NCBI GenBank assembly: GCA_964016885.1
Contig: CAXHJY010001407.1
Coordinates: forward strand, 1-47,549
Length of the DNA stretch: 47,549 bases
From: Eledone cirrhosa
Taxonomy: Eukaryota
Direction: 5' to 3'
Shown: piece after piece, positions 2,556-41,211 of the stretch
Numbering within the stretch: the first letter of the stretch is position 1
How the letters are laid out: every line of letters starts with the position of its first letter
Notes under the pieces: model-generated
What the model was told of the DNA's origin: nothing
Databases searched by the model: none
The model's input: only the letters and a program-made list of their open reading frames with translations
Translations under genes and position numbers: made by a program

Positions 2556-2559
<4 letters not shown>

Positions 2560-2747
2560 ATTGTTTCTACTTTTGGCACAAGGCCAGCAATTACCCAGTG
2601 CATTACTGCTACTTTATTTTATCGACCCCGTAAGGATGAAAGGCAAATAAACCTTGGCGGGATTTGAACTCAGAATGGCAAGGACCATAACTCTATGCGC
2701 TAAAGCATGGCGTCCGACCCTCTACCCATACTGCCAATCCACCGCCA
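2556..2747 (-). mobile_element. tRNA-derived SINE (Meta/Nin-domain-like core)
   Basis: Reverse complement of the family with A box TGGCAGTATCGG, B box GAGTTCAAATCC and core TTTGCCTTTCATCCTTACGGGGTCGATAAAATAAAGTACCAG. Confidence 0.8.
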
Positions 2748-2768
2748 TTATATTTATATATATATATA

Positions 2769-3148
2769 AGGGCGGTGGATTGGCAGTATCGGTAGAGGAT
2801 CGGACGCCATTCTTTCTAGCATAGTTACGTCCCTTTACAGTCTGATTTCAAATCCTGCCGAGGTTAACTTTGCCTTTCATCCTTACGGGGTCGATAAAAT
2901 AAAGTACCAGTAATGTACTGGGTAATTGCTGGCCTTGTGCCTAAAGTAGAAACAATTAAGGGCGGTGGATTGGCAGTATCAGTAGAGGGTCGGACACCAT
3001 GCTTTCCAGCATAGTTACGTCCCTTTACGATCTGAGTTCAAATCCCGCCGAGGTTGACTTTGCCTTTCATCCTTACGAGGTCGATAAAATAAAGTACCAG
3101 TAATGCACTGGGTAATTGCTGGCCTTGTGCCAAAAGTAGAAACAATTA
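2769..3148 (+). mobile_element. Two tandem copies of the same SINE
   Basis: Two head-to-tail copies of about 190 bp ending GTAGAAACAATTA. Confidence 0.85.
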
Positions 3149-3371
3149 TATTTATATATATATATATATATATATATAATAATAATAAGGGTTGACGGAC
3201 CCAGCATATTTATCAATGCCAGTACCGGTTGTATCTCAGCGCACTCAATGGGCAATGTAAGATACATTACCAGAGTATACACATAGTTATTTCCCACTCT
3301 ACTACTCTAAGTATGACCCCCGACGGCAGAGCTCAAGCCGTTTCGACGGCTATTTCTGGACTCGGTGGTGC

Positions 3372-3416
3372 GGGGCTCTGATGATCGCCAACACCGTGAA
3401 ACAGGCTGTTAGCTTC
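3372..3416 (+). ncRNA. Putative type I hammerhead ribozyme
   Basis: GGGGCT-CTGATGA-TCGCCAACACCGT-GAA-ACAGGCTGT-T^AGCTTC; stems I and III pair, stem II is weak. Confidence 0.6.
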
Positions 3417-3956
3417 TCTCTCTTCTTTCGCCGAAAAGAAGTAAGTGACATAGTCACTACTTTAAAACCGATAGTGTATGGTCTTAAAAATGTTTTTAAT
3501 TAAACATACGGTATATTGCCAAATATACTATACATACATTCATGTATACATCGCTATTTCAGAGCATCAATCCTAATATATATATATACTCATACACACA
3601 CATGTATACGTAGGAAAATGTGGCAAGTGTCACAACACAATAATCGTATATGGCGTCTATCTTTGATTTCTCGCTATAATTCAGCGCCATCTACATAGAA
3701 ATCTTAATATGGCCGCCGACTCTAACAGGTCATCTTAAACAAATCATACAACATAATTCAGAACGCAAAGAATCCCAAAATATATTGATTGCCGCTACTT
3801 CAGTCATTTCACTTCGTTCTTTGGCTTCTTGAAATACCAAGGAACCTAACGATTTTTTATGCCCTCCTTGAACCAGTAATAACATTGGGTTTGTTGGTTT
3901 GATTTTTGACAAAGTCAAGTCACATGCTCTGCCAACTTTGTCCTGATAGAAAAAGA

Positions 3957-16463: not shown

Positions 16464-16507
<44 letters not shown>

Positions 16508-16509
<2 letters not shown>

Positions 16510-17010
16510 CAATATATTAATAAATGGAAACTATATTTATAAAACCATATTTATTTCATTTAACATATTTCAAGGACACCAAAGCAAATTATGGTGCGCT
16601 TTCATCAGATAAAATATAATATACATCAGTTTTATAAACAAATATTGACATACCTTTCAAAGAATGCGACCATGTCGGTTGGAAGCTCCCGGATAGTGGG
16701 GTTATTAATTTTATTATTGGTCTATTATGCAAATTAGTGTCGGCTTAATTTAAATGTATGGAATTTAAACCTCTCCGACACTAATTTGCATAATAGACCA
16801 ATAATAAAATTAATAACCCCACTATCCGGGAGCTTCCAACCTACATGGTCGCATTCTTTTAAAGGTATGTCAATATTTGTTTATAAAACTTATCTATATT
16901 ATATTTTATCTGATGAAAGCGCACCATAATTTGCTTTGGTGTCCTTGAAATATGTATAATGAAATAAATATGGTTTTATAAATATAGTTTCCATTTATTA
17001 ATATATTGTA
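16508..17010. repeat. Fold-back inverted repeat with an HHR in each arm
   Basis: 236-bp arms (16508-16743 / 16775-17010), 31-nt spacer. Confidence 0.9.
16902..16966 (+). ncRNA. Type I hammerhead motif, family A (mirror copy at 16552-16616 on minus is damaged in stem III)
   Basis: TATTTTAT-CTGATGA-AAGCGCACCA...TGGTGTCCTT-GAA-ATATGTAT-A^ATGAAATA. Confidence 0.7.
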
Positions 17011-17095
17011 TTTTTACTCCAAAAATTTGTTGAGTGCATTATATCAGTTATAAAAATATCTGCTTGTTATATCCCAACAAATTAAATATAACTTC

Positions 17096-17212
<117 letters not shown>

Positions 17213-17928: not shown

Positions 17929-17972
<44 letters not shown>

Positions 17973-17978
<6 letters not shown>

Positions 17979-20900
17979 ATAAATGCTCTGAAATAGCGAT
18001 ATATATGTGAGTATAGACATAGAATATTCGAAAATATTCTGTATGTTTATAATAAACATTTTGAAGACCTAATCGCTATAGAATAGAATACGTCACGTAT
18101 TACAATTAGATTCTCGACAAAAGCAAGGGAAGTAATCTACGCGTTTCATTCTTGTTAGAATTCATCAGGACTACATATCCAGTGCTTTTATCGAGAATGA
18201 CACAGCTAGAGACTTATAGAATACTTAGCTGTGTACTGGAACTGGTTTGAAAGAGCGGTTGCCGGTCCGGCAGAAATTAGAAATTGGAATAAATGCTCTG
18301 AAATAGCGATATATATGTGAGTATAGACATAGAATATTCGAAAATATTCTGTATGTTTATAATAAACATTTTGAAGACCTAATCGCTATAGAATAGAATA
18401 CGTCACGTATTACAATTAGATTCTCGACAAAAGCAAGGGAAGTAATCTACGCGTTTCATTCTTGTTAGAATTCATCAGGACTACATATCCAGTGCTTTTA
18501 TCGAGAATGACACAGCTAGAGACTTATAGAATACTTAGCTGTGTACTGGAACTGGTTTGAAAGAGCGGTTGCCGGTCCGGCAGAAATTAGAAATTGGAAT
18601 AAATGCTCTGAAATAGCGATATATATGTGAGTATAGACATAGAATATTCGAAAATATTCTGTATGTTTATAATAAACATTTTGAAGACCTAATCGCTATA
18701 GAATAGAATACGTCACGTATTACAATTAGATTCTCGACAAAAGCAAGGGAAGTAATCTACGCGTTTCATTCTTGTTAGAATTCATCAGGACTACATATCC
18801 AGTGCTTTTATCGAGAATGACACAGCTAGAGACTTATAGAATACTTAGCTGTGTACTGGAACTGGTTTGAAAGAGCGGTTGCCGGTCCGGCAGAAATTAG
18901 AAATTGGAATAAATGCTCTGAAATAGCGATATATATGTGAGTATAGACATAGAATATTCGAAAATATTCTGTATGTTTATAATAAACATTTTGAAGACCT
19001 AATCGCTATAGAATAGAATACGTCACGTATTACAATTAGATTCTCGACAAAAGCAAGGGAAGTAATCTACGCGTTTCATTCTTGTTAGAATTCATCAGGA
19101 CTACATATCCAGTGCTTTTATCGAGAATGACACAGCTAGAGACTTATAGAATACTTAGCTGTGTACTGGAACTGGTTTGAAAGAGCGGTTGCCGGTCCGG
19201 CAGAAATTAGAAATTGGAATAAATGCTCTGAAATAGCGATATATATGTGAGTATAGACATAGAATATTCGAAAATATTCTGTATGTTTATAATAAACATT
19301 TTGAAGACCTAATCGCTATAGAATAGAATACGTCACGTATTACAATTAGATTCTCGACAAAAGCAAGGGAAGTAATCTACGCGTTTCATTCTTGTTAGAA
19401 TTCATCAGGACTACATATCCAGTGCTTTTATCGAGAATGACACAGCTAGAGACTTATAGAATACTTAGCTGTGTACTGGAACTGGTTTGAAAGAGCGGTT
19501 GCCGGTCCGGCAGAAATTAGAAATTGGAATAAATGCTCTGAAATAGCGATATATATGTGAGTATAGACATAGAATATTCGAAAATATTCTGTATGTTTAT
19601 AATAAACATTTTGAAGACCTAATCGCTATAGAATAGAATACGTCACGTATTACAATTAGATTCTCGACAAAAGCAAGGGAAGTAATCTACGCGTTTCATT
19701 CTTGTTAGAATTCATCAGGACTACATATCCAGTGCTTTTATCGAGAATGACAGTACACAGCTAAGTATTCTATAAGTCTCTAGCTGTGTCATTCTCGATA
19801 AAAGCACTGGATATGTAGTCCTGATGAATTCTAACAAGAATGAAACGCGTAGATTACTTCCCTTGCTTTTGTCGAGAATCTAATTGTAATACGTGACGTA
19901 TTCTATTCTATAGCGATTAGGTCTTCAAAATGTTTATTATAAACATACAGAATATTTTCGAATATTCTATGTCTATACTCACATATATATCGCTATTTCA
20001 GAGCATTTATTCCAATTTCTAATTTCTGCCGGACCGGCAACCGCTCTTTCAAACCAGTTCCAGTACACAGCTAAGTATTCTATAAGTCTCTAGCTGTGTC
20101 ATTCTCGATAAAAGCACTGGATATGTAGTCCTGATGAATTCTAACAAGAATGAAACGCGTAGATTACTTCCCTTGCTTTTGTCGAGAATCTAATTGTAAT
20201 ACGTGACGTATTCTATTCTATAGCGATTAGGTCTTCAAAATGTTTATTATAAACATACAGAATATTTTCGAATATTCTATGTCTATACTCACATATATAT
20301 CGCTATTTCAGAGCATTTATTCCAATTTCTAATTTCTGCCGGACCGGCAACCGCTCTTTCAAACCAGTTCCAGTACACAGCTAAGTATTCTATAAGTCTC
20401 TAGCTGTGTCATTCTCGATAAAAGCACTGGATATGTAGTCCTGATGAATTCTAACAAGAATGAAACGCGTAGATTACTTCCCTTGCTTTTGTCGAGAATC
20501 TAATTGTAATACGTGACGTATTCTATTCTATAGCGATTAGGTCTTCAAAATGTTTATTATAAACATACAGAATATTTTCGAATATTCTATGTCTATACTC
20601 ACATATATATCGCTATTTCAGAGCATTTATTCCAATTTCTAATTTCTGCCGGACCGGCAACCGCTCTTTCAAACCAGTTCCAGTACACAGCTAAGTATTC
20701 TATAAGTCTCTAGCTGTGTCATTCTCGATAAAAGCACTGGATATGTAGTCCTGATGAATTCTAACAAGAATGAAACGCGTAGATTACTTCCCTTGCTTTT
20801 GTCGAGAATCTAATTGTAATACGTGACGTATTCTATTCTATAGCGATTAGGTCTTCAAAATGTTTATTATAAACATACAGAATATTTTCGAATATTCTAT

Positions 20901-23387
20901 GTCTATACTCACATATATATCGCTATTTCAGAGCATTTATTCCAATTTCTAATTTCTGCCGGACCGGCAACCGCTCTTTCAAACCAGTTCCAGTACACAG
21001 CTAAGTATTCTATAAGTCTCTAGCTGTGTCATTCTCGATAAAAGCACTGGATATGTAGTCCTGATGAATTCTAACAAGAATGAAACGCGTAGATTACTTC
21101 CCTTGCTTTTGTCGAGAATCTAATTGTAATACGTGACGTATTCTATTCTATAGCGATTAGGTCTTCAAAATGTTTATTATAAACATACAGAATATTTTCG
21201 AATATTCTATGTCTATACTCACATATATATCGCTATTTCAGAGCATTTATTCCAATTTCTAATTTCTGCCGGACCGGCAACCGCTCTTTCAAACCAGTTC
21301 CAGTACACAGCTAAGTATTCTATAAGTCTCTAGCTGTGTCATTCTCGATAAAAGCACTGGATATGTAGTCCTGATGAATTCTAACAAGAATGAAACGCGT
21401 AGATTACTTCCCTTGCTTTTGTCGAGAATCTAATTGTAATACGTGACGTATTCTATTCTATAGCGATTAGGTCTTCAAAATGTTTATTATAAACATACAG
21501 AATATTTTCGAATATTCTATGTCTATACTCACATATATATCGCTATTTCAGAGCATTTATTCCAATTTCTAATTTCTGCCGGACCGGCAACCGCTCTTTC
21601 AAACCAGTTCCAGTACACAGCTAAGTATTCTATAAGTCTCTAGCTGTGTCATTCTCGATAAAAGCACTGGATATGTAGTCCTGATGAATTCTAACAAGAA
21701 TGAAACGCGTAGATTACTTCCCTTGCTTTTGTCGAGAATCTAATTGTAATACGTGACGTATTCTATTCTATAGCGATTAGGTCTTCAAAATGTTTATTAT
21801 AAACATACAGAATATTTTCGAATATTCTATGTCTATACTCACATATATATCGCTATTTCAGAGCATTTATTCCAATTTCTAATTTCTGCCGGACCGGCAA
21901 CCGCTCTTTCAAACCAGTTCCAGTACACAGCTAAGTATTCTATAAGTCTCTAGCTGTGTCATTCTCGATAAAAGCACTGGATATGTAGTCCTGATGAATT
22001 CTAACAAGAATGAAACGCGTAGATTACTTCCCTTGCTTTTGTCGAGAATCTAATTGTAATACGTGACGTATTCTATTCTATAGCGATTAGGTCTTCAAAA
22101 TGTTTATTATAAACATACAGAATATTTTCGAATATTCTATGTCTATACTCACATATATATCGCTATTTCAGAGCATTTATTCCAATTTCTAATTTCTGCC
22201 GGACCGGCAACCGCTCTTTCAAACCAGTTCCAGTACACAGCTAAGTATTCTATAAGTCTCTAGCTGTGTCATTCTCGATAAAAGCACTGGATATGTAGTC
22301 CTGATGAATTCTAACAAGAATGAAACGCGTAGATTACTTCCCTTGCTTTTGTCGAGAATCTAATTGTAATACGTGACGTATTCTATTCTATAGCGATTAG
22401 GTCTTCAAAATGTTTATTATAAACATACAGAATATTTTCGAATATTCTATGTCTATACTCACATATATATCGCTATTTCAGAGCATTTATTCCAATTTCT
22501 AATTTCTGCCGGACCGGCAACCGCTCTTTCAAACCAGTTCCAGTACACAGCTAAGTATTCTATAAGTCTCTAGCTGTGTCATTCTCGATAAAAGCACTGG
22601 ATATGTAGTCCTGATGAATTCTAACAAGAATGAAACGCGTAGATTACTTCCCTTGCTTTTGTCGAGAATCTAATTGTAATACGTGACGTATTCTATTCTA
22701 TAGCGATTAGGTCTTCAAAATGTTTATTATAAACATACAGAATATTTTCGAATATTCTATGTCTATACTCACATATATATCGCTATTTCAGAGCATTTAT
22801 TCCAATTTCTAATTTCTGCCGGACCGGCAACCGCTCTTTCAAACCAGTTCCAGTACACAGCTAAGTATTCTATAAGTCTCTAGCTGTGTCATTCTCGATA
22901 AAAGCACTGGATATGTAGTCCTGATGAATTCTAACAAGAATGAAACGCGTAGATTACTTCCCTTGCTTTTGTCGAGAATCTAATTGTAATACGTGACGTA
23001 TTCTATTCTATAGCGATTAGGTCTTCAAAATGTTTATTATAAACATACAGAATATTTTCGAATATTCTATGTCTATACTCACATATATATCGCTATTTCA
23101 GAGCATTTATTCCAATTTCTAATTTCTGCCGGACCGGCAACCGCTCTTTCAAACCAGTTCCAGTACACAGCTAAGTATTCTATAAGTCTCTAGCTGTGTC
23201 ATTCTCGATAAAAGCACTGGATATGTAGTCCTGATGAATTCTAACAAGAATGAAACGCGTAGATTACTTCCCTTGCTTTTGTCGAGAATCTAATTGTAAT
23301 ACGTGACGTATTCTATTCTATAGCGATTAGGTCTTCAAAATGTTTATTATAAACATACAGAATATTTTCGAATATTCTATGTCTATA

Positions 23388-23391
<4 letters not shown>
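17973..23391. mobile_element. Retrozyme-like array 1: 310-bp HHR-containing monomer, about 5.7 copies then about 11.7 inverted copies
   Basis: Unit starts at 17973, 18283, 18593, 18903, 19213, 19523. Orientation flips at 19751-19752; inverted units start at 19751, 20061 ... 23161. Units look identical by eye, there is no ORF, both sides are (TA)n, and each unit holds one HHR (6 on minus, 12 on plus). Confidence 0.92.
19791..19879 (+). ncRNA. Type I minimal hammerhead ribozyme (representative copy of 18 in array 1)
   Basis: GTAGTC-CTGATGA-ATTCT(AACA)AGAAT-GAA-ACGCGT-A^GATTAC (19815-19857): complete core, 5-bp stem II, palindromic stem III, 6-bp stem I. Stem I extends past an internal loop via ATTCTCGATAAAAGCA/TGCTTTTGTCGAGAAT. 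Predicted cleavage after 19851. Confidence 0.9.
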
Positions 23392-23418
<27 letters not shown>

Positions 23419-23419
<1 letters not shown>

Positions 23420-24518
23420 CTATATAAATTGGAAGTGGTCGGACGTTGTATATTTAAGTAAGTAAGTAGGTGTAGTCGGATAAACATCGAAACGGCTTGG
23501 TGGAATGCAGCAAAAATTTAGACATTTATGCAGAATGACCCGAGAAGGCGTTGGGTAGACTTTCAAGCTACAAGCTTCCATGGTTACGGAGAAAATCGAT
23601 GAAACAGAAATTTCCCATTCAAATTGAACTGAGAGTAATCTGTGAACGCAGAAGTAAATATTACGAGAAACGTTGCAACCGAAGGAAAACAGGAAGACCA
23701 TATTTTGGTTCGTGAAGACGTTCCCTGGCAATGAACGGAAAAAAACGCGAGGATAATACGTCGTTATGTGGAGCGTGAAGAACAATTTCATGCAAAGACA
23801 AGACCAAGTTTATGGTATAAATGGAGTCGTTAGACTAATATTCTATTGAACATAACAGAATGATTTCCATCCCCGGAGTTTAAGAATGATGTAAATAAAA
23901 TTGAAAACGAAAATGACAGAGGTTATTAAAATAGTAAAAGTAAATAGTGAAGATTTAGGCCAGTACATACGTATGCCCCGACGTACATACACATACATAC
24001 GCACACACAAATACATACCCGCACACACACACAAACACACAAACACACACACACACACAGACACACAGACACACGAGCGCGCGTGTATAAACCTTATGGA
24101 TTTCTACAGTATTTTCACCAAACGTAAGACATAGGTTACTTATGTACTCCGGATGGTCATGGGCACTTTCATTTTTCCATATATTGATTATAGGGCCTCC
24201 CGACAGATAACCCCCTTTAACCACTTCCTTGGAGTCGACTGAAGAACTGCAGTGCAATGCAACAAAACGTCATAACCTCTGGAGTTCGCAACCGATTTTC
24301 ACAAAACTTGACACATGGGCTACGTTTGTCCTACAGATGAATGTGAACTCTCAGAATTGGCACATATTGAGTAGGGGACCCCTGGGGGCAGGAACCCCCT
24401 TTGGAAAAAGCCGATGATTTTGTAAAAGTATAGTTTTCGAAGCAGCACTGAAGTATTGACATAAATGTTATACACAACTGCTATTTAATACTCGAGCAAC
24501 GCCGGGTAGCTCTGCTAG
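23419..24518 (+). mobile_element. Non-autonomous Helitron family B
   Basis: Near copy of 37647-38708; ends CTCGAGCAACGCCGGG-TAGCTCTG-CTAG|T. Confidence 0.75.
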
Positions 24519-24524
24519 TATATA

Positions 24525-24631
24525 TAATTGTTTCTACTTTTGGCACAAGGCCAGCAATTATCTCAGAGCATTACTGGTACTTTATTTTATCGACCCTGTA
24601 AGGATGAAAGGCAAAGATAACCTCGGCGGGA
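24525..24631 (-). mobile_element. SINE 3' half
   Basis: Core and tail of the same family. Confidence 0.7.
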
Positions 24632-25755: not shown

Positions 25756-26042
25756 ATAAATTTTCCTTGGATAGTGAATTTAAAGAACAGATTTTTCAAA
25801 ATTGTTAGGATGAGTATGAAAATGAATATGTAAATGAGGTTGAGTTATATGATTGAAAAACTTTCTTTAACAATTTAATTTTTTTATATTTTAATATATT
25901 AATATTTCTAAATGGTAATATCTCTAATATTTGTAGTACTTTCACCTTTCAGCAAAAATTTCTTTTAATATATATATATATATATATTTATATATATGTA
26001 TGTGTATAGATATTTATATATATTTATGTATATCTATATATT

Positions 26043-27025
26043 TCGCAAACTCCATCCACCAGAGCATTAGAGTTACTATAGACTACCCAAGTAGACACCC
26101 CAACCATCGATTACCTGTACTAGACACAGAGCTCTGGTTAGATACCATTAACAACCAAAAACAAAACCTCCATTCCCATTATGCCAAACCCATGACTTCC
26201 AAACATCTGATCCACCGAAACTCGGCCATTTCGGACCATACCAAAATCAACATACTGATTGCGGATTTGGTACGGGTGATGAGAAATGTGTCCCGCATGT
26301 GCAACCCCGAAGAACTAGAGAGACACATACAACACTTCATCCACCGTATGCAGTTCTCTGGCTACAATCAGAGAGATAGAATCAGAGTGTATAGAGGAGC
26401 CAGAACCAAATGGGAAAAAATGGTAAATAATGACATAAATGGGACCAGCCCCTTGTATAGGAGCAAATTTTGGAATAGAATAGAAAGAACTAGGAACAAG
26501 GCTAATAGAATAAACTCATGGTATGATAGCAATAAATACCAGAGTGTAATGTTCATCGATACAACCCCTAGAGGCGAACTAGCCTACAAATTTAGAAGGG
26601 CCCTAAATAAACATAAACTCAATATTAAGATAGTAGAAAGACCAGGTACCTCCGTAAAAACACTTATTAGCAAGACATACCCTTTTCAAAGACCCTCATG
26701 TATAGATAAGAAATGTATAACCTGTAAAATGGCGCATGCGCAAACTGAGCACACAACACACACACAGAAACAAAATGGCGTAGGACAGAACAAAGGAGAG
26801 GCACAGAAACAAAGAAAGGAATCCCCAGTCACTGAAGAGGTCACAGAGTGTGTGACGAAAGGACTATGACCATATATAAACAACTATCTGGTTGTGGAAC
26901 CAACCAACCAACCAGAAATTTATAAATTTATAAATTTGTAAATTTATAAATATATAATAAATTGAAGTGAAAGCAACTGGTGCGTGTGTTTCTTATTGGC
27001 AACATGACCCTCCCAAAGTATAACT
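26043..27025 (+). mobile_element. Second Penelope-like lineage: RT C-terminus/thumb plus Cys linker, endonuclease missing, then HHR/pLTR
   Basis: Open frame with LPVLD, YAKPM, SAIS...KINIL, RMQFSGY, FIDTTPRGELA, KIVERPGTSVK and CIDKKCITC, then a switch to non-conserved sequence containing an HHR. The tail ATGACCCTCCCAAAGTATAAC recurs near 5080-5101. Confidence 0.8.
26828..26870 (+). ncRNA. Type I hammerhead motif at the 3' end of the second PLE ORF
   Basis: GTCA-CTGAAGA-G-GTCACA(GAGTG)TGTGAC-GAA-AGGACT-A^TGAC; one extra G before stem II. Confidence 0.7.
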
Positions 27026-37010: not shown

Positions 37011-37646
37011 GAAAACGCTTTAATAAAAAAAAATATCAACTGTAATGTATGTATGCATGTATTTATGTGTTTATATGAGCGGGGATATGCAAGTAAATCT
37101 TACTTTGTGGACAGCTGCCCCTTAGCATAATATTCATGCTAGAACAGCATATATTTGAAAGTTTTCAGGGAGTTGAATTACTGATTTTGGATCGGCAGCT
37201 TTAGCTTTGAAAAAATGAAATGTGCAGTGTAAACATTTTTTATTATTCCTCCGGGGATGAATCTTCTCGGCCTTTTCCAATCTCTTTCTTTCTCTCTGGA
37301 AGAAATCAGCCGTAGTAAGACCTAAAAAAATGGTTAGATACACCATGACGCACCGTGCATCACGGTGGAGTTGAAAAGCAGACTCAGAACATGGCGTTGT
37401 GTGTGGGGGGGGGGGGGCTTGCAGCCCAATGTTCCAGGGGGAGCAGAAGAAGAAGAAGAAGAAGAAGAAGAAGAAGAAGAAGAAGAAGAAGAAGAAGAAG
37501 AAGAAGAAGAAGAAGAAGAAGAAGAAGAAGAAGGTGTGAGCTGGAGTCCTATCAAATATGTAGGTTGTGTCTTAGATTGAAGGTTTAGTAGAAACAATTC
37601 ATGTATAGTTTTGTACTTTTCTTTTTGTCATTCATATATAAACAAA

Positions 37647-38707
37647 TCTAATATAGAAATTGGAAGTGGTCGGACGTTGTATATGTAGGTGTAGTCGGAT
37701 AAACGTCGAAACGGCTTGGTGGAATGCAGCGAAAATTTACACAGTTATGCGGAATGACCCGAAGAGGCGTTGGGTAGACTTTCAAGCTACAAGCTTCCAT
37801 GGTTACGGAGAAAATCGATGAAACAGGAATTTCCCATTCAAATTGAACTGAGAGTAATCTGTGAACGCAGAAGTAAATATTTCGAGAAACGTTGCAACCA
37901 AACGAAAACAGAAAGACGATATTTTGGTTCGTGAAGACGTTCTCTGGCAATGAATGGGAAAAAAGCGAGGATAATACGTCGTTATGTGGAGCGTGAAGAA
38001 CAATTTCATGCAAAGACAAGACCAAGTTTATGGTATAAATGGAGTCGTTAGACTAATATTCTATTTAAAATAAGAGAATGATTTCCAACCCCGAGTTTAA
38101 GAATGATGTAAATTAAATTGAAAACGAAAATGACAGAAGTTATTAAAATAGTAAAAGTAAATAGTGAAGATTTAGGCCAGTACATACGTATGCCCCGACG
38201 GAATACACATACATACGCACACACAAATACAGACACACCCATAAACACACACACACACGCGCACGCGCGTATGTATAAACCTTATGCATTTCTACAGTAT
38301 TTTCACCAAACTTAAGATATAGGTTACTTATGTACTCCGGAGGGTCATGGGCACTTTCATTTTTACAGATATTGATTATAGAGCCACCCGGCAGATAACC
38401 CCCTTTAACCACTTCCTTGGAGTCGACTGAAGCACTGCAGTGAAATGCAACAAAACGTCATAACTTCTGGAGTTCGCAACCGATTTTCACAAAACTTGAC
38501 ACATGGGCTACGTTTGTCCTACAGATGAATGTGAACTCTCAGAATTGGCACATATTGAGTAGGGGACCCCTGGAAGCAGGAACCCTCCTTTGGAAAACAG
38601 CCGATGAATTTGTAAAAGTATAGTTTTTTAAGCAGCACTGAAGTATTGACGTAAATGTTATACACAACTGCTATTTAATACCCGAGCAACGCCGGGTACC
38701 TCTGCTA

Positions 38708-38708
<1 letters not shown>
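37647..38708 (+). mobile_element. Non-autonomous Helitron family B
   Basis: A|TCTAATATAG start; CCCGAGCAACGCCGGG hairpin and CTAG|T end. Confidence 0.8.
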
Positions 38709-38748
<40 letters not shown>

Positions 38749-38751
<3 letters not shown>

Positions 38752-39993
38752 ACAAACATAGAATATTCGAAAATATTCTGTATGTTTATAATAAACATTT
38801 CGAAGACCCAATCGCTATAGAATAGAATACGTCACGTATTACAATTTGAGATTCTCGATAAAAGCAAGGGAAGTAACCTACGCGTTTCATTCTTATTAGA
38901 AATCATCAGGATTACATATCCAGTGCTTTTATCGAGAATGACACAGCTAGAGACTTATAGAATACTTAGCTGTGTACAGGAACTGGTTTGAAAGAGCGGT
39001 TGCCGGTCCGGCAGAAATTAGAATTTGGATATAATGCTCTGAAATAGCGATATATATGTGAAGACAAACATAGAATATTCGAAAATATTCTGTATGTTTA
39101 TAATAAACATTTCGAAGACCCAATCGCTATAGAATAGAATACGTCACGTATTACAATTTGAGATTCTCGATAAAAGCAAGGGAAGTAACCTACGCGTTTC
39201 ATTCTTATTAGAAATCATCAGGATTACATATCCAGTGCTTTTATCGAGAATGACACAGCTAGAGACTTATAGAATACTTAGCTGTGTACAGGAACTGGTT
39301 TGAAAGAGCGGTTGCCGGTCCGGCAGAAATTAGAATTTGGATATAATGCTCTGAAATAGCGATATATATGTGAAGACAAACATAGAATATTCGAAAATAT
39401 TCTGTATGTTTATAATAAACATTTCGAAGACCCAATCGCTATAGAATAGAATACGTCACGTATTACAATTTGAGATTCTCGATAAAAGCAAGGGAAGTAA
39501 CCTACGCGTTTCATTCTTATTAGAAATCATCAGGATTACATATCCAGTGCTTTTATCGAGAATGACACAGCTAGAGACTTATAGAATACTTAGCTGTGTA
39601 CAGGAACTGGTTTGAAAGAGCGGTTGCCGGTCCGGCAGAAATTAGAATTTGGATATAATGCTCTGAAATAGCGATATATATGTGAAGACAAACATAGAAT
39701 ATTCGAAAATATTCTGTATGTTTATAATAAACATTTCGAAGACCCAATCGCTATAGAATAGAATACGTCTCGATAAAAGCACTGGATATGTAATCCTGAT
39801 GATTTCTAATAAGAATGAAACGCGTAGGTTACTTCCCTTGCTTTTATCGAGAATCTCAAATTGTAATACGTGACGTATTCTATTCTATAGCGATTGGGTC
39901 TTCGAAATGTTTATTATAAACATACAGAATATTTTCGAATATTCTATGTTTGTCTTCACATATATATCGCTATTTCAGAGCATTATATCCAAA
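38749..39993. mobile_element. Retrozyme-like array 2: 312-bp variant monomer, about 3.3 copies plus an inverted partial copy
   Basis: Unit starts at 38749, 39061, 39373, 39685; inversion at 39768-39769. Same family as array 1 with fixed differences. TA-rich flanks. Lies in the Galpha intron between coding exons 1 and 2. Confidence 0.92.
39790..39832 (+). ncRNA. Type I minimal hammerhead ribozyme (array 2 variant; 3 more copies on the minus strand)
   Basis: GTAATC-CTGATGA-TTTCT(AATA)AGAAT-GAA-ACGCGT-A^GGTTAC; core intact, U.U at the base of stem II. Confidence 0.85.
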
Positions 39994-40107
39994 AATATAT
40001 ATATATATATATACATGTAAAGTTATATTTAAAATTGTTGGGTTACAACTAGTAAATATTTATAACTGATATAAAAGCACTCGACAAATATTTGGAGTAT
40101 ATTTACA

Positions 40108-40908
<801 letters not shown>

Positions 40909-41026
40909 CATATATATATATATAGAGAGAGAGAGAGAGGTAGTGAGACAGAATTATTATCAATATGGAAGTTCTTCAAAACAGAAAAAAAAAACTTCTA
41001 TTTTTTCAAATTATTTTTTCATATAG

Positions 41027-41211
41027 GTGCTTCCGGTTCCGGGAAAAGTACCTTTATTAAACAAATGAGAATCAAATATGGTGACGGCTTTCCCGAAAAT
41101 GAACGCCATTACTTCAAACCATTTATTTACGAGAACATCACGCATGCGCTGCATCATGTCTTAGATCACATGGTAAACATGAAAATCATATATAATGACC
41201 CCTCGATGCAT
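41027..41211 (+). CDS. G-protein alpha subunit, coding exon 2 (P-loop and alphaA)
   Basis: tttttcatatAG acceptor, GTAAGT donor, 185 nt, phase 1 to 0. Encodes (G)[61 protein letters not shown], collinear with Gq [23 protein letters not shown]...VYQNI. Confidence 0.93.

Follow-up and report, generated by a model that had tools for sequence, protein, structure and literature searches.

Two arrays of a hammerhead-bearing repeat in a contig of Eledone cirrhosa each consist of two opposed arms joined head to head. All 140 closed head-to-head arrays that we examined pair one outer end at phases 263-273 of the repeat unit with one at phases 227-240. The reading we favour, with fair confidence, is twin target priming on one, probably circular, RNA by a borrowed enzyme of a Penelope-like element (PLE), into (TA)n, as a single event. 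Taken by its parts, twin target priming on a shared template is likely, and twin target priming with a circular template is somewhat more likely than not. That both DNA ends prime had been proposed in a first-pass annotation of this DNA; it is supported by the unlike outer ends, by microhomology at the joints, by units shared between the arms and by the unmet predictions of a fold-back. The anatomy is not new in kind, because ends about 35 nt apart and an inverted 5'-truncated copy are a published PLE signature, which the annotation had overlooked.

The window arrays and their repeat unit

The window, that is the whole stretch of DNA analysed, is an entire unplaced contig of 47,549 nt; genome-wide searches covered the 3.0-Gb assembly. 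As shown in Table 1, phases are numbered in hammerhead sense from phase 1 at window position 19751. All four outer ends are 3' ends in this sense and lie in (TA)n. The whole units of array 1 are identical, both within each arm and between arms, and the unit of array 2 shows about 94% identity to them. The flips of orientation, noticed beforehand with their CA and TC overlaps, were confirmed in both arrays. Target-site duplications are unreadable within (TA)n. At the array 2 site neither a second copy nor an empty allele was found in the assembly.

Table 1. Features of the two head-to-head arrays in the window
Feature	Position	Strand	Remarks
(TA)n flank, left of array 1	17940..17972	.	
Array 1 long-end arm	17973..19752	-	5.74 identical 310-nt units; outer 3' end phase 266, inner end phase 37
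35-nt 'tail' (phases 232-266)	17973..18007	-	only at array 1 long outer end; matches the PLE tail as described in PMC8557442 and PMC11167929
Array 1 head-to-head junction	19751..19752	.	2-nt overlap CA
Array 1 short-end arm	19751..23391	+	11.75 identical units; inner end phase 1, outer 3' end phase 231
Type I hammerhead motif, one unit	19815..19857	+	phases 65-107; repeated in every unit; from sequence and folds
3' module, one unit	19906..20023	+	phases about 156-273; contains both start sites
(TA)n flank, right of array 1	23392..23419	.	
(TA)n flank, left of array 2	38709..38748	.	
Array 2 short-end arm	38749..39769	-	3.27 units of 312-nt variant; outer end phase 229, inner end phase 145
Array 2 head-to-head junction	39768..39769	.	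2-nt overlap TC
Array 2 long-end arm	39768..39993	+	0.72 unit; inner end phase 43, outer end phase 266
(TA)n flank, right of array 2	39994..40012	.	common to adjoining hammerhead-bearing palindrome

The family, with units of 310-312 nt, is a type I hammerhead retrozyme, an already known kind. According to sequence and fold (fold z -4.0), the unit hammerhead has the core and stems I and II, together with a short, palindromic stem III. The core is intact in 149/149 dominant units, and cleavage is predicted after phase 101, at window position 19851. An Rfam search with the unit hammerhead gave no match at the gathering score. The window arrays contain no ORF of at least 220 aa, and the RT plus GIY-YIG ORF of an autonomous PLE is absent from the units. 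The tandem noncoding units (310/312 nt) fall within the range of about 170-400 nt of non-LTR retrozymes, and the element is dispersed at many loci, with 995 exact long-end matches and 155 loci fetched. By every feature testable here, the element is a non-LTR (animal) retrozyme.

The 3' module is common to three other repeat families whose ribozyme cores differ. Its pattern has 15,952 matches genome-wide, and its hairpins show compensatory changes in 4/26 pairs. An older retrozyme family at 3340-3590 has another hammerhead but shares the 3' module and both kinds of end with the present family; copies of the older family are 93-97% identical, with 2241 candidates. At 40013-40455 and 16507-17107 lie head-to-head palindromes of a different hammerhead-bearing family, again in (TA)n. 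One end of these palindromes is about 95 nt longer than the other, and their centres are near-symmetric (1-nt and about 20-nt spacers), unlike those of the retrozyme arrays. More than half of the words of the unit (19751-20060) are present in 20 sequencing runs of 17 studies. Two runs from two other organisms each contain one self-closing 340-nt contig of the root unit type at depth 26-34. These contigs could come from related species, trace DNA or circles, and they carry no weight in the argument.

Each array is adjoined by one copy of a 1.1-kb repeat (23403-24526 and 37634-38716), which ends in a hairpin and CTAG. The two copies are 91% identical, and we take the repeat to be Helitron-like. 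About 1 kb from array 2 lies a G-protein alpha subunit exon (41026-41211; PF00503, E 4e-14), single in the assembly. SINE-like 190-bp units, tandem and inverted, occupy 2558-3149 between TA tracts. A 310-codon open frame at 25937-26866 is without a Pfam match; by eye it resembles retroelement fragments in three fetched loci (L034, L117, L182).

Outer ends across the genome

A long-end pattern, (TA) followed by the unit from phase 266, gave 995 exact matches in the genome and a reversed-pattern control gave 0, so the fixed ends are not due to chance. Short-end patterns gave 1311 and 559 matches, the former count including some C>T-variant units from inside arrays. Three sets of loci were compared. 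Set a held 20 of the 22 non-window loci of a similarity listing, chosen by similarity alone; among its 22 arrays, 16 were head-to-head, one had a second arm of about 10 nt and five were single-arm. Set b held 99 of the first 100 long-end matches listed, one being skipped as it lay inside another stretch. Its loci were head-to-head in 93 cases and single-arm in four; one stood at an N gap, and one was longer than its stretch, with the short end found 15 kb away. In the 91 closed arrays of the 93, the short end was at phase 231 (50 arrays), 240 (31) or 228-236 (10). Set c held 36 loci from the short-end listing, distinct from those already fetched: 31 were head-to-head with the long end at 263-273, four single-arm and one open.

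The 140 closed arrays with unlike ends are thus the two of the window, 16 found by similarity, 91 anchored at the long end and 31 anchored at the short end. If each end chose its site independently, like ends would be expected in half of the anchored arrays; long/long pairs were found in 0/91 and short/short pairs in 0/31. The window had suggested that outer ends fall at only two places in the monomer about 35 nt apart, one of each kind per array and each running into TA-rich sequence, and this held in 140/140. The first-pass annotation had named random end positions in other copies as its refutation; the positions are not random. (TA)n was present on both flanks of the window arrays and of the unanchored head-to-head arrays, the anchored sets being selected for TA at one end only. 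The insertions therefore have the traits of PLE-type insertion: an inverted copy (93/99, 31/36 and 16/22 in sets b, c and a), a tail at one end in every closed array and a (TA)n target.

An artefact of assembly from fold-back reads was considered, since the window comprises an unplaced contig of 47.5 kb in full, and its junctions are known from the assembly alone. However, the flanks are unrelated, the arms differ in end site and length, and the same layout occurs at more than 130 places on chromosome-scale contigs. We give this explanation practically no weight.

Joints, arms and template

Overlaps of at least 2 nt were present in 38 of the 65 insertion-free joints (expected 11.7, p 4e-13), in agreement with the earlier proposal that the two cDNAs were linked by microhomology. 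Insertions were called in 28/93 joints, of which about five are artefacts of the caller and three are complex. Many of the short insertions copy nearby sequence, one joint (L146) shows serial re-priming, and the arms of L153 and L173 are separated by foreign DNA (about 270 and 54 nt). Inner-end phases and their offset modulo the unit were uniform (KS p 0.41 and 0.17, offset 0.68), and inner ends lay within 40 nt of each other in 26/93 arrays, with 24.3 expected. The long-end arm was the longer in 54/91 arrays and the short-end arm in 37/91; the two lengths correlate weakly (rho 0.34, p 0.0009). Nearly uncoupled inner ends, microhomology and either arm being the longer are as expected from end-joining of two separately stopped cDNAs and not from a fold-back.

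Both window joints had suggested junctions guided by hairpins. This was ruled out by the uniform phases across 93 other arrays, and the hairpin beside the array 1 junction, to which the first-pass annotation had drawn attention, is incidental. Run-off at the ribozyme site was ruled out by the absence of an inner-end pile-up at the predicted cleavage site (5/186, expected 5.4).

A self-priming fold-back, in which a cDNA snaps back and is itself copied, is proposed for Penelope in PMC3846280. It would accord with the unit hairpins that adjoin both window junctions and with the symmetric centres seen in 4/91 arrays and in the palindromes of other families. Inner ends coincide within 15 nt on the template in these 4/91 arrays (expected 0.9, p 0.013), which leaves room for a minority route. 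Against it stand the uniform offsets, the 54 to 37 division of the longer arm, unit-specific variants that are not mirrored and the foreign filler between arms, and a fold-back copy would also need to stop at the fixed second site. Junctions here are not palindromic, as against the self-priming model described in PMC3846280, and the uncoupled inner ends speak against self-priming. Fold-back is largely refuted for the retrozyme family, where we hold it very unlikely; it may apply to a minority and to non-tandem PLE copies. Mirrored variants in L106 and L107 were dropped as reference-unit artefacts, the L107 reference being one unit.

The arms of an array share their unit. Dominant units of 149 arrays fell into 50 types, and an identical unit was found in both arms of 97/106 arrays with whole units on each side, compared with 0.08 for random pairs; the nine exceptions differ by 1-2 substitutions. 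The identity of units within an array, explained beforehand by a shared template, is thus borne out. Across 131 arrays, the stretches that both arms cover hold 106 unit-specific variants present in one arm only, so later conversion is too rare to be the homogeniser. Some conversion between arms does exist, because the arms of L063, and likewise those of L182, have a variant in common that is out of register.

The arrays might instead have begun as short head-to-head inserts that were later expanded or homogenised in DNA by slippage, unequal exchange or conversion. A 7-unit duplication in L063 points this way, as do variants that recur here and there in two very long arrays, L085 and L181; in these three arrays, of 28 to about 48 units, such changes represent later DNA-level turnover. 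For the family as a whole we think this origin highly improbable, as DNA-level expansion could give no strand-specific A>G bias, unshared variants persist and 59/119 arrays have no single-unit variant.

Each DNA end might also have been primed on a separate RNA from the same expressed source, held in an asymmetric enzyme dimer. This would give one end of each kind and independent stops, with no enzymes displacing each other on 310 nt. It would also suit L072, whose arms differ in state at phase 67: the long arm has A for four outer passes and then G, and every pass of the short arm has G. The change could reflect a template switch, conversion, or editing while the cDNA was made. At least 50 dominant types exist, yet arms agree in 97/106 arrays, including types private to one array, and L098 would require the same template series in both arms. 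Two RNAs are accordingly given a small chance.

Substitutions were analysed on a minimum spanning tree of 31 types with at least three identical units, from 113 arrays. On the ribozyme strand, whole-array substitutions were A>G in 14/35 and T>C in four, and single-unit substitutions were A>G in 5/117 and T>C in 21 (A>G contrast p 6e-7; second contrast p 2e-4). A>G recurred at phases 67, 121 and 50 on four, three and two backgrounds, all in predicted stems. ADAR preferences were used when reading A>G sites as A-to-I. With the backbone site 103 left out, 6/7 A>G sites follow a U, compared with 36/91 of the A's. When sites were counted once, or T>C was halved to mimic structural selection, the A>G excess remained at p 0.009-0.04. 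A>G is also the best tolerated change in stems, through G-U pairs, and its recurrence could arise via recombination. Since a DNA process would show no strand preference and edits to a multimer would appear in single units, these substitutions suggest a monomer bottleneck at the RNA level, most simply an A-to-I-edited circle. Single-unit variants (arrays L031-L185) are themselves T>C-rich on the ribozyme strand (21 vs 5 A>G, p 0.009), possibly from RT misreading of U, and their counts are overdispersed between arrays.

The alternative closest to our reading keeps twin target priming and takes as the usual template the uncleaved, linear, multimeric transcript of an array already in place. In 3/131 arrays (L081, L098, L166) a variant is confined to the outer pass or passes of both arms and is in register when units are counted inward from the outer ends, which one monomer circle would not be expected to give. 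The arms of L098, one of 3 and the other of 17.7 units, each begin at the outer end with two passes of another known three-variant type. The small excess of coinciding inner ends also agrees with a multimer, and the anole PLE in vitro, as described in PMC11167929, did not require ribozyme cleavage. On the other side, editing would strike single units of a multimer, whereas A>G changes extend over whole arrays and few single-unit variants are of this kind. In addition, 17/31 dominant types (at least three identical units) are confined to one array, inner ends are mostly uncoupled, and four palindromes of non-tandem elements, an anecdotal comparison, are near-symmetric. We consider the multimer unlikely as the usual template, though it keeps an appreciable share. 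The first-pass annotation had left the RNA as circular or multimeric. The A>G pattern favours the monomer circle, and a few arrays, the three above, fit better with linear multimers or a joint template switch. These three, the change of state in one arm of L072, the out-of-register variants of L063 and L182 and the four arrays with coinciding inner ends all count against our reading.

Proposed mechanism and relation to known elements

In the proposed pathway, units would be transcribed, self-cleave and be ligated to monomer circles, some of them A-to-I edited. A PLE RT-GIY-YIG protein, probably a dimer, would bind the structured 3' module and cut both (TA)n strands. The first 3'-OH would start at phase 263-273 and the second at 227-240, a further 35-40 nt or so along, and a few bases of A/U pairing would serve each start. 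Each would then be extended around the circle by strand displacement, covering anything from 0.2 to more than 30 turns, and would stop independently of the other. Host microhomology-mediated end-joining would then join the two cDNA 3' ends and fill the second strands. Where the second end failed to prime, a single arm would result, its inner end joined to the other flank. The most specific form, in which a PLE dimer takes up a single circular ribozyme RNA bearing A-to-I edits, gives each break end one of the two start sites and carries out two simultaneous rolling-circle reverse transcriptions, is put forward tentatively. If true, the dimer and its reading of an edited circle would be a general mechanism of PLE tails and head-to-head inversions, and the arrays would be genomic proof of animal retrozyme circles as a transposition intermediate.

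For L1, twin priming is known: both target ends prime on one RNA, and microhomology-joined cDNAs give an inversion. In L1 the internal site taken by the second primer varies, and the two parts have no RNA overlap. In contrast, the second site here has a fixed place about 35 nt away from the first, and the arms recopy the same sequence many times.

Non-LTR retrozymes as described by Cervera and de la Pena 2020 (PMC7229834) and by Li, Clavereau and Pollet 2026 (bioRxiv 10.64898/2026.07.22.740005) resemble the present family in their noncoding tandem units of about 300 nt with one type I hammerhead each, in their many dispersed loci and in the presence of PLEs in the same genome. A circRNA template and PLE mobilisation are proposed there as hypotheses. 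Expression and cleavage are shown for those published retrozymes; the present family is known from genome sequence. It also differs from published retrozymes in that its insertion anatomy bears the PLE signature. We found no description of head-to-head arrays, fixed paired ends or (TA)n targeting in the main text of either report.

EN+ PLEs leave an inverted 5'-truncated copy with an optional 30-40-bp tail, and Neptune and Naiad have a (TA)n bias, according to PMC8557442 and PMC3846280. The arrays are like them in the head-to-head inversion, the tail at one end and a microsatellite target that hides target-site duplications. They are unlike them in having no ORF, in that both arms are multi-unit and in a tail rule that is strict (140/140) and not 'optional'.

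For Poseidon PAc of the green anole, two internal RNA start sites bound the tail in vitro (Frangieh et al. 2024, PMC11167929). The purified protein cuts and extends both strands of an AT-rich target and is predicted to be a dimer. The account in PMC11167929 reports neither a strand difference in start site nor an inverted product nor a circular template. By this analogy, an enzyme without a strand difference would not alone give strict pairing, which counts against the proposed pathway; unlike that report, the genomic arrays imply one start site per DNA end. The strict pairing of unlike ends connects the in vitro result of two start sites with genomic inversion.

The inverted copy, the tail and the (TA)n bias are thus PLE traits known already, and circle-templated tandem cDNA was proposed earlier. 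Our literature searches, which covered mainly open-access main texts, found no twin priming of PLEs or retrozymes, no head-to-head retrozyme arrays, no unlike-end rule and no ADAR or editing marks in such arrays. According to PMC8557442 it is undefined how PLEs form their tails and inverted copies, and retrozyme circles as templates are a hypothesis in PMC7229834; with a young family of about a thousand or more arrays, both open questions become countable tests. Strand-specific A>G fixed array-wide is a candidate RNA-level mark on the monomer, and the 120-nt module is a candidate for the smallest cis signal needed to place long tandem cDNA at a break.

Genome-wide, 10,595 GIY-YIG candidates were found and 150 scored, giving many RT plus GIY-YIG PLEs. 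The module was absent as a pLTR in 38 GIY-YIG loci, and no module-bearing partner PLE stood beside 31 loci of related families. The one module match among the GIY-YIG loci (L187) belongs to a separate head-to-head insert. At another locus (L219), a truncated RT plus GIY-YIG element also stands in TA as a head-to-head insertion, one of its ends long and the other short.
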